DNA of 63,837 nt, the filler included, from Dugesia japonica (taxonomy: Eukaryota), in assembly GCA_001938525.1 (NCBI GenBank). It is 5 parts of 5 records of this genome, joined end to end, with 100 filler letters (N's around TTAATTAATTAA, not from the genome) between each part and the next. Parts side by side here need not be neighbours in the genome. Positions count along the whole stretch, not along the records: positions 37,863 to 55,447 come from MQRL01619908.1; 4 more parts are not named here. One strand, 5' to 3'. The notes beneath the pieces are model-generated. The model made no database searches. It had not been told where the DNA came from and was given only the letters and a program-made list of their open reading frames with translations. The stretch's first letter is position 1. Each line of letters opens with the position of its first letter. Made by a program: the position numbers and the translations under genes. Positions 48,749 through 53,180 of this stretch are shown here, piece by piece.

Positions 48749-51700
48749 ACCTCCCAATTCGGGAAAAATCCACAACGTATTAGATTTAACTAAATCTATT
48801 TTCATCAGTCCAATCGGGGTGGTATCCTCCACTATTCCATCTTCATCCAAGAGTTTATATGGTGGCTTAAATGGTAGCTTATCCCGTATCTATTTGATTG
48901 TATTATATACGGGTATACTAATTGTGATTTTGTCCCCTTCTGGATCAATTATTCTGAATTTAACTTCCAATGGCGTGGTCTGGCCCATCTCTGCTTTCCG
49001 CCATTTAACTAGGATCTTACTGAACTGGATCGGATCCCATACATGTGCTACTTTGATGGCTAGTATTAATCGTCGCAATTTCCTAAGATCTTCTACTGCC
49101 AGATCTTGTTGTAAGGCTATATTGCATCGTCGTATGATTTCCGGCTTTATTAACTTATCGCCCACTAGTAATTCAAACAATTTCGGTAAATTGTCTTCCG
49201 GTTTCTCGTCTTTGGCCGGGGTGTTGGTCAGAGCTGCTACCATCTCTATTCGTTGTTTATTTTGCTCTTGTTTAGGGAGCTTAGCTCTAGCGAATACTAA
49301 TGGATGTATTTCTTCTATGTAATATTCCACTAACTCCCTAGCTTCCTGTTTCCATTTCTCCTCCGAGACTCGTGGTCATCGTCTCTTTTCATCCTTTGCT
49401 GTTACATATATTTTTAATTTAGTACCTGGCCAAACCCCCATATATTTCACTGGTAATCTCATTTGGTCTGATTCTATTAATTGGTTGTAATAGAGTACTA
49501 TGTCATCTTCCTGAACTGATGTTTGCTCTCCAGTTCCCTCCTCGTTAAGGTTACGCTGTTGATTCATAAATTTCACAATCCTCCTTCGCAGCTTAGACCA
49601 TGGTTCATTCATTTAGATCTGCCAACGAATTTCACTTTCGTCGGGAAATCTGATTGTTACTGTGACGGCTTCATTGGTTATCATTTGAACTGCTTTATTT
49701 AATATCGCATCCATTATGTCTTCCGGCATTTTACTTATAGCTCGTAATTGATTTAGCTTTAGAACTAATTGAATGACTTTGTCATGTCTTAATAATTCCA
49801 AATTTTCTTCCAAGGTTAAGAGTATTTTTATTATTACTCGTGCCAGACTTCCCCATGTTTTACTGTCTTCCCATAGCTCAGTGTTTATTTTCATTGTTCT
49901 ATCGTCGACTTCTTCAAATAATTTCCCACTGTTGATTTCTTGTTTGTATATTTCTTCTAGTTGTTGTGGTACTTCCTCCATAGATTTTATCAGACCTGGG
50001 GTGTACTCGTCTGGTTTCTGGATTTGAAGGAAGGTATTCTCACTGGGTCCTAATCCTACGTCCATTAAATGTTGTTTCCCTTCAAACTTTATGGGGAATC
50101 TCAAATGATTGCTTGTAACTGCATAGCCTTTCTATTGGTCAGCTATATCTAGTGATTTTATAATTTCCTATAATTCACTTGCTATTGTACCATTAAATTG
50201 TGGTATATGCATGACAGCCAATTCCGGTTCCTTCCTTGATTTCTTGTTTGGTGTCAGATATTCTATCATGACCTGAAAATCCTCTCCTTTGGCACTCATC
50301 TTCACCGCACTAATATACGGCTTGATTACTGATTCCCATTTGTTACGTTCTTCCTTTGGTATTTCAGTATACTTTGCCAGATCCATTAGTAAATTTAATG
50401 CCTTCCAGAACGCTGCCCTAGGTATTTTTTCTTGGAAATAACAGAAATCGGAAATTATCTTCGAAATCCGCTCCATCTGGGGAGAACTGAACAATCGCGG
50501 TTGGCCAATATCCTCCGAGCTTTCCCCTCCTGTTCTTCTTCCTATGATGTTATGTCTGTGGTGTCCCGGTTATTATCCCGAACCATGTTTATTTGGGCTT
50601 TATTTTCGCCATAAGTGTTTATAAGTCGTTCATTCTCTACCGGTAGTATTTCTTGTAGATATAGGCTCATCATATTAAATATGAGGTGAACGGTATCCGG
50701 CGTCTTCGGTATTGGAATGTTTATGGTCATTTTACGGGTGTTAGTTTGATTTCTGTGATCTCCCCTGGTTTGATTTCATGTAGAAAGATGTGATCCCCCT
50801 TCTCTGCTAGTATGATCATTGTTGCTCCTGCCTGCATTTTATAGGATTTGAGCAATTTTGGCCATAGCCATTTCTTGATTGGTTTTATGTTATGGTTGAT
50901 TGTTAACCCTTCCAGCGTTATCATATCTATCTTTTTTATGCTTCCTTCGTTATTAAGGAGGCTGACTCTGATAGAATAGTCGGATATGGTGATGTATTTT
51001 GTACTTCTTCTTCGTATAAGTTTTTCTCTTTCCACCATTGTGCTCGAGCCCACAAGCNNNNNNNNNNNNNNNNNGCCAAATCCCGTAAGTTATTCATCAT
51101 TTTCCAATATACTTTGATATTCACGACTGGTCGAGTTTCTCGTGTTACTCTTAATAGATCATTGATAGCGTGAAACGTGGCGGATTCCTCCGTTATCGGT
51201 TTCGTATAATTCATTCGAATATCACGTATTGTCGGCGTCCCTTCCGGAAATACAACTGATTTTGTGGTGGTTATTGGCAGGTTATCGATATTCTGTATTT
51301 TTTGATTTTCCTTTACTTGTTTCTTTATACCGGACAATACCTCGGATAGGTATAATTCTGTTATCTCCTCTATTCGTCCCTCGAGATCCGGTGATTGATC
51401 TGTCCGTGGCTCCTCGTCTACATCCAACTCACATATTTCTCCGGGTTTTGCGTGGCATTGAAATATGTGTTTGTCCTCGTCGTCAGTCTCAACCAGTTTG
51501 CCATTTATGAACAGAGGTACCATGTTTAGCCCCTATTCTCGCCACTTATCAGTAATGGCATCCATTAAATCCATCATGGTTATTCCTTGCGGGTTTAATC
51601 GGCTTATTTAGTCAGTTCCTGTTCATTTTATCTATATTTAAATATAATTTATAATCCCAAATTTTTGTAGTGGCCAATATTTCTTCGGCATACTTTTGCC

Positions 51701-53180
51701 TAATCCTGAGCTACTGGTTCTCGATTTCCTTCGGTATTTCTAGTCCGTCATATTTGTCGTAGATTCTATTCATTATCATCCAATAGGTTTCTCGTGGTAA
51801 GTTCTCCTTCTCCATCTGTACTCGGTTAACCATTTCTTCCACCTTACGCAATGCTACTACCTCTCTTGATGGCATCTGTCGCATTCTTATCATGTTGCAT
51901 TTACCTTCTCTTCTCTCTAATCGTTGTTTGAGAAAATTATTACGCGTCATTAACAACTGTTTCCTCTCTTCCTTTGTCAGTTTATCTTTCTTCCCGAGTA
52001 CGGTGGAAAGTATCTTGATTTTAATCGGCTTTACTCCTTGTTTACATAGATATTCTATTTCTCCCATGATTTCTAAAGCTGATCTTCCGGTTTTCGTTAT
52101 CCAGATGTCTTAGTCGATACCAGCGTGTTTGTCTAATACTACAATTTCAATGTCCTTTCCTGGTTTTACTCCAAAATCATATAGATGTTTCTTTATGTCA
52201 TTAAAATATACCATAGCACTTGGGGTGCATACATATTTATCATTTACGCATGGATAACCGGCTTGATTAAGCGCCGCTTCTAGATCTTCTACCATTAATC
52301 CCGTGAGCGTCAATTTCATATTCCCTTCCGGGTTATATAACCATACTTGGTAATCCGATAATCCCTTGTTGGATATTACCCACTCATAATGCACTGGTAA
52401 CCATTCTGTCCAATCGCTTTCGCACTCGGTGATCAGTTGTATCATTTCCAATAATTCGACCAACCGATTTGTCAACTTTAGGTATACTTCTTTCTTTATA
52501 GTGTCACGGAGTTTCTGAGCTGCTACCAGTATCTCATCAATTCGCGCTAAGGATAACAGTGATGCTTCGGCTTGTTCTAATTCTGGGTAATTCCCAATCT
52601 TTTAATTCCCAATCTTTTACGCATGTAGTTTTGAGCCTGGAGGGGAATTATTTCCTTTAGGAATGTTTCTTCGAGATTATGAAATAACTCATCTGTTTCT
52701 ACTTCTTGAATTTTTATTTGGGGTCGAAATACCAAATCCCAATTTATCAATTTGATTACCGTAATTTCATGGAGTCGTGCCCCGTAATAAATTAGATTCT
52801 TGTCATCGGGAAGGATATTGATTCCTATATTCCCTAGTTGCAATCGGTGCTTATTCCACTTTTCATTCCATTGTTGCTGTTCATTAAATGGTGGTAATTC
52901 AAGAGACGGGTTTACTTCATCCCATTCTATTTCGTTAAGTGCTCCTTTCAAGTGTCGTACTGTCATTTCCTTTAGTGGTAGTTTTAGCCGTTTTGGAATA
53001 ACTTCCGGGCTGTTATGCCATACGTATTGAATTTCGAACTCATAATCGTCTAACTGGGTTTCTTTATACAGCTCGGCGATATAATCTGATATTGTTTTCT
53101 GCCAGTTAGCCTTTACCTTTGCGTGTACTTGTGGGTGCTGATATAATCGAAGTAACTGGTTCATCACTCACCTTCTCCCG
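48749..53180 (-). other. Array of ~7 diverged [helical + ubiquitin-like beta-grasp] modules within the polyprotein
   Basis: Recurring W..(M/L)N.L..L...EIPKE...W......Y......D(Y/F), then Ubl-like T(V/I).(D/H)L..A(L/I)...(K)HL.D.G(V/L)KPG..(I/L).(I/L). Confidence 0.65.

Follow-up and report, generated by a model that had tools for sequence, protein, structure and literature searches.

The Burro/GYPSM1 elements are the described retrotransposons closest in architecture to the one reported here. In the covered portions of the Burro review (PMC6431247), their first open reading frame (ORF) encodes 4,873–5,140 amino acids, has an in-frame Env separating gag from pol and carries apoptosis and ubiquitination domains. 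The same portions report one Ubi2/SUMO-like motif between MATH and BCL-2, variable placement of MATH among Burro elements, and motifs ahead of the Ubi2/SUMO-like one that cover only half of the ORF; about half of the polyprotein is reported there as unannotated (PMC6431247). The RING and BIR region of Burro1 is reported, in the covered part of another source, to protect stem cells from apoptosis (PMC13465017, citing Lee 2026). Here we describe a decayed Burro-type giant Ty3/gypsy element of Dugesia japonica (assembly GCA_001938525.1, contig MQRL01619908.1) whose polyprotein contains five old tandem paralogues of one module, followed by two further units, between the nucleocapsid and a Bcl-2-like domain. 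The element occupies positions 37863–55447 of a stretch of 63,837 nucleotides made of five joined parts, hereafter the window, and all element coordinates given below refer to the minus strand of this stretch.

The element and Burro/GYPSM1, as the latter appear in the covered sources, share many features. Both encode one giant polyprotein with three CCHC knuckles in Gag and a RING domain, in both, a ubiquitin/SUMO-like domain (a likely one in the element) precedes a Bcl-2-like domain (a weak match in the element), and both have an in-frame mononegavirus-like Env and a dUTPase between the protease and the reverse transcriptase (RT). By this architecture we assign the element to the Burro type of giant gypsy elements, which the original prediction had not recognized. 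It differs in having two protease domains, and the MATH, BIR and ankyrin motifs of Burro1–4 gave no Pfam match in the stretches scanned, which cover part of the element in its coding frame. Furthermore, the review names a single Ubi2/SUMO-like motif for Burro whereas the element has an array, although an array could have gone unnoticed in the published elements.

Platyhelminthes errantiviruses also share the Gag-Env-Pol order with the element, and the covered main text of the paper that reports them (PMC13524379) has no occurrence of ubiquitin, SUMO, Bcl or Burro and describes no accessory array. The covered parts of two other papers (PMC8532177 and PMC13238120) hold no domain detail. Within the literature covered, we found no description of a tandem ubiquitin-like array in a Burro-type element or any long terminal repeat (LTR) retrotransposon; Grohme 2018 and Lee 2026 lie outside this coverage and could describe one. 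Elements of this type, with a single ubiquitin-like domain at the same place, are thus already known, and what appears to be new is the five-copy array of a helical part and a probable beta-grasp part. The array would close the unannotated gap by about 1,000 residues through gene-family expansion within a retrotransposon polyprotein, a process better known from large DNA viruses.

Five tandem paralogues and two further units

We read the array region as six in-frame pieces, with X placed at every stop and frame change. The original prediction had proposed about seven diverged copies of a helical and ubiquitin-like module, and the peptide strings it cited are present on the minus strand, about where it had placed them. 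A repeat far above chance is directly observed for five of the modules (M1–M5). Pairwise local alignment scores among them reached z values of up to 12.6; no score as high was found in 500 shuffles for 6 of the 10 pairs, three more pairs were equalled by 1, 3 and 11 of 500 shuffles, and the M1–M3 pair was not significant (37 of 500). Furthermore, profiles built from four modules recovered the fifth in all five cases, at 33.4–53.7 bits against shuffle maxima of no more than 7.7. The repeat signal is present in both halves of the module.

M1 (52745–53200; 41.4 bits in the leave-one-out test) has a helical part (53200–53060) and a probable beta-grasp part (53059–52745) into which about 19 residues are inserted. 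Its frame is that of the nucleocapsid, with one stop between them. M2 (52125–52570; 44.6 bits) has a predicted three-helix bundle and then a probable beta-grasp part (52367–52125). It is free of stops, within a stop-free stretch at 52113–52601, and its fold and partners are therefore directly testable as it stands. The same module recurs as M3 (51410–51880; 53.1 bits), where the frame changes near 51610 and stops interrupt it, as M4 (50745–51200; 53.7 bits), which has a 17-N gap (51058–51074) and a frame change near 51005, and as M5 (50015–50500; 33.4 bits), which has two stops. The boundaries first drawn were roughly right except for M4, which runs from about 51200 to 50745 and had been cut off in mid-domain.

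The two remaining units, M6 (49390–49880) and M7 (48749–49375), failed all of these tests, so the count of seven copies does not hold. In local mode, the 11 pairs that include M6 or M7 gave no significant score; the scores of both units against the M1–M5 profile were −1.4 to 2.6 bits or absent, and hhalign gave them probabilities of 0.1–0.7%. A single amplified family of seven units is not supported, as M6 and M7 match neither M1–M5 nor each other. By eye, the last-strand motif of M6 is like that of M2; the linker plus M6 compared with the linker plus M2 did not reach significance (608 of 2000 shuffles). M6 may have been captured independently, or it may be a sixth copy that has diverged strongly.

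Identity among M1–M5 is 14.6–23.4%, and there is no repeat at the DNA level (the best blastn self-match is 15 nt, E 0.06). Four columns of the M1–M5 alignment are invariant apart from gaps (Asn, Asp, Asn and a terminal Pro, the latter of doubtful weight) and about 35 more are near-invariant or all-hydrophobic. The conservation of these columns at 15–23% identity, together with the lack of a DNA-level repeat, indicates long selection on the protein. A five-row tree of M1–M5 had no supported branch (68/72).

The read path through the array has 11 stops in 1,480 codons, compared with 61–141 stops for any single frame over the same span. We observed the same stop density in env (6 in 788 codons) and in the RT, RNase H and integrase region (6 in 870). 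The array therefore belonged to a working polyprotein and decayed alongside it; this copy of the element is dead. An alternative is that the array was captured host sequence, duplicated and drifting without function. Such baggage would suit the five frame changes that accompany the 11 stops, since none is needed in the counted stretches of env and RT-integrase; furthermore, the stop count of the path is lowered because the path was picked by eye with these frame changes. However, the equal stop density argues against neutral drift, and so does the retention of length, hydrophobic pattern and invariant residues by five copies that have lost all DNA similarity. We consider this alternative extremely unlikely.

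Searches for relatives of the modules were empty. The M1–M5 profile had no match at E 0.001 among 1.84 billion representative proteins, and three word-seeded searches for homologous proteins also returned nothing, which is weak evidence given their length limit. The ESM Atlas gave nothing credible (it matched M2 below 0.9 only, with low recognition, and we rejected these matches), and Foldseek against viral models found no match at E 0.001. Because eukaryotic transposon ORFs may be underrepresented in these collections, the empty searches speak for distance from catalogued proteins and not for rarity.

By eye, a short Asn-Met linker motif stands ahead of M1 (53330–53341) and again ahead of M3 (51885–51896) and M5 (50578–50589); these motifs may be candidate cut sites for the element's protease. 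The linkers after M2 (51906–52110) and M4 (50545–50740) are helical-looking, 65–75 residues long, without a Pfam match and without similarity to each other. Short acidic helices follow M1, M3 and M5, and the score between those of M1 and M5 was reached by 34 of 1000 shuffles. The linker motif and the similarity of M2 to M4 and of M3 to M5 gave grounds for a higher-order repeat of two modules (M1+M2, M3+M4, M5+M6). This arrangement was tested and not established, as M2 and M3 score equally high (z 11.5), the M6 and M2 comparison with linkers was not significant and the five-row tree supports no branch.

Predicted fold of the repeated module

AlphaFold models of M2 agree with the helical and ubiquitin-like order of the original prediction. 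The two-domain model, built from M2 and five other rows, has three helices (predicted local distance difference test, pLDDT, 50–77 by block) and then a strand, strand, helix, short strands, short helix and strand (pLDDT 35–53). The second half modelled alone has the identical element order, and its length in M1–M5 (75–100 residues) fits a beta-grasp. A VIA fold search with this second-half model against 48,161 non-redundant chains found 118 at Z of at least 2 and none at Z 5. Among the best 50 of these 118, 36 are ubiquitin-superfamily folds, with 50–62 residues aligned at about 3–4 Å. The titles of 26 name ubiquitin, ubiquitin-like (UBL), UBX, PB1, ULD or FAT10, and we take 10 others to be ubiquitin-superfamily domains as well. 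In Foldseek, SUMO, ISG15, UBL or YukD chains made up 13 of the 49 matches listed for the two-domain model (E 1.7–3.1; the SUMO entries are redundant). The case for a beta-grasp comes from this concentration of neighbours in one superfamily, as the single scores are insignificant. On these models, the second half of M1–M5 is likely a beta-grasp.

The neighbours could also point to a different small alpha/beta fold with an element-specific job. The absence of sequence matches and the low confidence of the models are consistent with this possibility, as are the CCT domain of SPAK, which was the top VIA match (Z 3.8, 64 residues, 2.9 Å), and the 13 of the best 50 rows that have other folds, five of them FHA. 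However, a single superfamily supplies 36 of the best 50 rows from a non-redundant library, the element order and length suit a beta-grasp, and the second model agrees with the first. We consider another fold for a real repeat decidedly unlikely.

Several results weigh against reading the modules as ubiquitin-like domains that engage the host. The models are poor (pLDDT 53.5 and predicted template modelling score, pTM, 0.36 for the two-domain model; 48.4 and 0.31 for the second half alone) and cover M2 only, the fold being carried to M1 and M3–M5 by homology. The count of VIA neighbours is a raw one, the top match is the CCT domain, and the best Z of 3.8 falls under the typical background of Z 7–8 stated for the tool. 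In Foldseek the E-values start at about 1 and get worse from there, and none of the 47 matches listed for the single-domain model is a ubiquitin chain. None of the five M1–M5 domains had a ubiquitin-clan match in Pfam, and M1–M5 profiles, from alignments five rows deep, found no ubiquitin-like chain in the PDB. Profile comparison with the ubiquitin clan, which had been proposed as a check of the fold, thus gave nothing for M1–M5 and weak UBL/SUMO matches for M6. The fold also leaves function unfixed, because UBL folds score no better than those of PB1 and UBX. The hand-picked frame path described above belongs here too. Elsewhere in the window there is one 32-nt match but no second copy of the array. 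Of the proposed architecture, the order of three helices followed by beta-grasp elements therefore stands for the M2 models, but these are of low confidence and M1–M5 lack a sequence match.

In the model, the helical half folds as a three-helix bundle of generic type. Its best match was CNOT3 (Z 8.7), with which many unrelated bundles tie; Vta1 was also listed. A BAG domain, that of AtBAG4, appeared at rank 32 (Z 6.7, 71 residues, 3.3 Å) amid generic three-helix bundles. The helical halves of M2 and M5 had no Pfam match, and VIA with the two-domain model matched helices only. Matches to KIF-binding protein, PXR, CusF, ApeA and BACOVA were judged to be chance. BAG1, BAG6, Rad23, Dsk2 and Get5 join an integral, non-conjugated ubiquitin-like domain to a helical domain, and their UBL domains are among the fold neighbours of the modules. 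In contrast to these cellular ubiquitin-domain proteins, the modules have the helical part first, and there is no sequence similarity between them; the match of the helical parts is non-specific.

M6, M7 and the terminal Gly-Gly

M6 has a helical-looking region followed by a domain (49678–49390) that, in sequence, weakly resembles SUMO and UBL domains. Its best matches were Pfam UCH_UBL1 (E 0.015) and, in the PDB, SUMO2 (E 0.31), both under threshold. This domain could be the ubiquitin-like domain reported in the covered part of the Burro review (PMC6431247). M7 has about 130 helical-looking residues and a domain (48979–48749) whose ubiquitin-like pattern was recognized by eye only; alone, this domain had no significant Pfam, PDB or hhalign match. 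A joint M6+M7 profile matched one 41-residue PDB chain (E 1.1), presumably derived from SUMO1.

M7 is the only unit with a terminal Gly-Gly after the last predicted strand (48749–48754, read directly); M1–M6 do not have it and are for that reason not conjugatable modifiers. By eye, a second Gly-Gly on the module path occurs only at an ambiguous frame junction near 50530. The Gly-Gly of M7 lies just upstream of a linker and the Bcl-2-like domain, which raises the possibility that the ubiquitin-like domains are processing signals cut by host deubiquitinases or SUMO proteases, for example to free the Bcl-2-like protein after M7. However, this would explain one of the seven units, the Gly-Gly is known from one copy, the element owns proteases, and the M7 tail seems one residue shorter than that of ubiquitin. 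The covered part of the work on pestivirus polyproteins (PMC8310069) provides a precedent, as these also carry a ubiquitin-like domain inside, to which the Gly-Gly-ended unit of the element can be compared. Yet the pestivirus insertions are recent and near-identical to host sequence (PMC8310069), whereas the modules are deeply diverged and six of the seven lack Gly-Gly. We regard a role in processing as very unlikely.

Possible functions of the array

We propose that the modules are non-conjugated adaptors or decoys for the host ubiquitin machinery, a predicted function to which we assign a probability of roughly 45%. Because they lack Gly-Gly, six of the seven units would work as integral docking domains and not as modifiers. 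Encoded in one reading frame with Gag, the modules would be made in the same amount as Gag. Lying ahead of the hydrophobic segment found before Env, they would face the cytosol. The element's protease could cut at the Asn-Met motif before M1, M3 and M5, perhaps releasing two-module proteins. The beta-grasp half would bind host proteins that read ubiquitin-like domains, such as proteasome receptors, p97 cofactors, ligases or deubiquitinases, and the helical half would hold a client or brace the fold. Duplication and divergence to about 20% identity may have widened the range of partners. With the Bcl-2-like domain and the RING, the modules would then sustain host-cell survival and protect the proteins of the element.

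The same layout could serve a structural purpose. A hydrophobic segment (about 47525–47468) follows the Bcl-2-like domain and could be a membrane anchor and the Env signal at once. The array sits in one frame between the nucleocapsid and this segment, a single frame would give it Gag-level stoichiometry, and PB1 domains are 5 of the best 50 fold neighbours. The modules might be spacers with a fold, or PB1-like units that associate with one another; they would connect the capsid and nucleocapsid to the membrane anchor and substitute for a matrix protein in budding. However, conserved polar residues at fixed columns suggest a surface that was kept and not a spacer, the candidate protease sites inside the array would sever such a tether, and manipulation of the host is what the neighbouring Bcl-2-like domain and the RING suggest. 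A tether is possible, though unlikely.

The adaptor reading can be extended to a miniature ubiquitin-like system of the element's own. A diversified set of ubiquitin-fold adaptors, released from Gag and packaged in the particle, and a Gly-Gly unit that is cleaved or conjugated would act with the RING and the Bcl-2-like protein, changing how host stem cells turn over their proteins and survive. We consider a system of this kind highly doubtful. If it were true, much of the half of the Burro polyprotein that lacks annotation would be explained by the array.

Domains flanking the array and the element's contig

On the minus strand, the Pfam domains follow the order Gag, three CCHC knuckles, the modules, a weak Bcl-2, Env, two proteases, dUTPase-like domain, RT, RNase H, integrase and RING. 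The Gag-to-RING span is about 4,800–5,000 codons of one polyprotein that is now broken. The Gag capsid region (53870–54560) matched Retrotrans_gag at E 0.0013, under the curated cut-off. The nucleocapsid (53602–53785) matched zf-CCHC (E 5.4e-11), and its three CCHC knuckles were read directly. On the other side of the array, the Bcl-2-like domain (47654–47914) aligned to positions 17–100 of the 100 in the Pfam Bcl-2 profile at E 0.023, under the cut-off; a PDB sequence search did not match a Bcl-2 protein. The array's place between nucleocapsid and Bcl-2-like domain, as originally predicted, is observed directly.

Env (45101–47464) matched Monjiviricetes_fusion at E 6.7e-86 and shares its frame with M5–M7 and the Bcl-2-like domain. 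The next region (43817–45097) contains two aspartyl protease domains (E 2.5e-07 and 6.8e-06) and the dUTPase-like domain (43978–43817; E 0.003, under the cut-off). The protease domains are in tandem (44200–45097), and each of the two has a catalytic motif. RT, RNase H and integrase follow at 40989–43598 (RVT_1 5.1e-20, RT_RNaseH_2 3.8e-39 and rve 5.5e-13). A C3HC4 RING ends the polyprotein at 40081–40212 (zf-C3HC4_3, E 1.2e-15), in agreement with the C-terminal RING of the original prediction. The approximately 240 codons that separate it from the integrase (40212–40940) leave room for a BIR-like or other domain.

Downstream of the RING, a second, broken reading frame (38931–40005) has a long coiled-coil-like stretch and then a proline-rich part with a weak match to PAM2, a motif that interacts with poly(A)-binding protein (E 0.066). 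This frame may be the counterpart of the Smc-like motif noted for Burro. A 64-codon open frame (38541–38735), in what is likely the 3' LTR region, has by eye an acidic EHxDETD-Cys-type motif; its Pfam match was weak and at chance level, and a look-up of its sequence found nothing.

The assignment of 37863–55447 to one element follows from the N runs, GC content and domain order. The element fills its 17.6-kb contig, which has N spacers on both sides and stops short of the 5' LTR. Over most of the contig the GC content is 36–40%, versus 21–32% elsewhere in the window. The identical 100-nt N spacers that join the contigs (10501–10600, 20754–20853, 37763–37862 and 55448–55547) are assembly artefacts; they carry a central palindrome and account for the longest inverted repeats in the window. 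AT-rich arrays of diverged repeats lie at 12300–13400, 18200–18800 and 58450–59360. The first two are mutually inverted (152 nt at 91%) and possibly represent a fold-back element.

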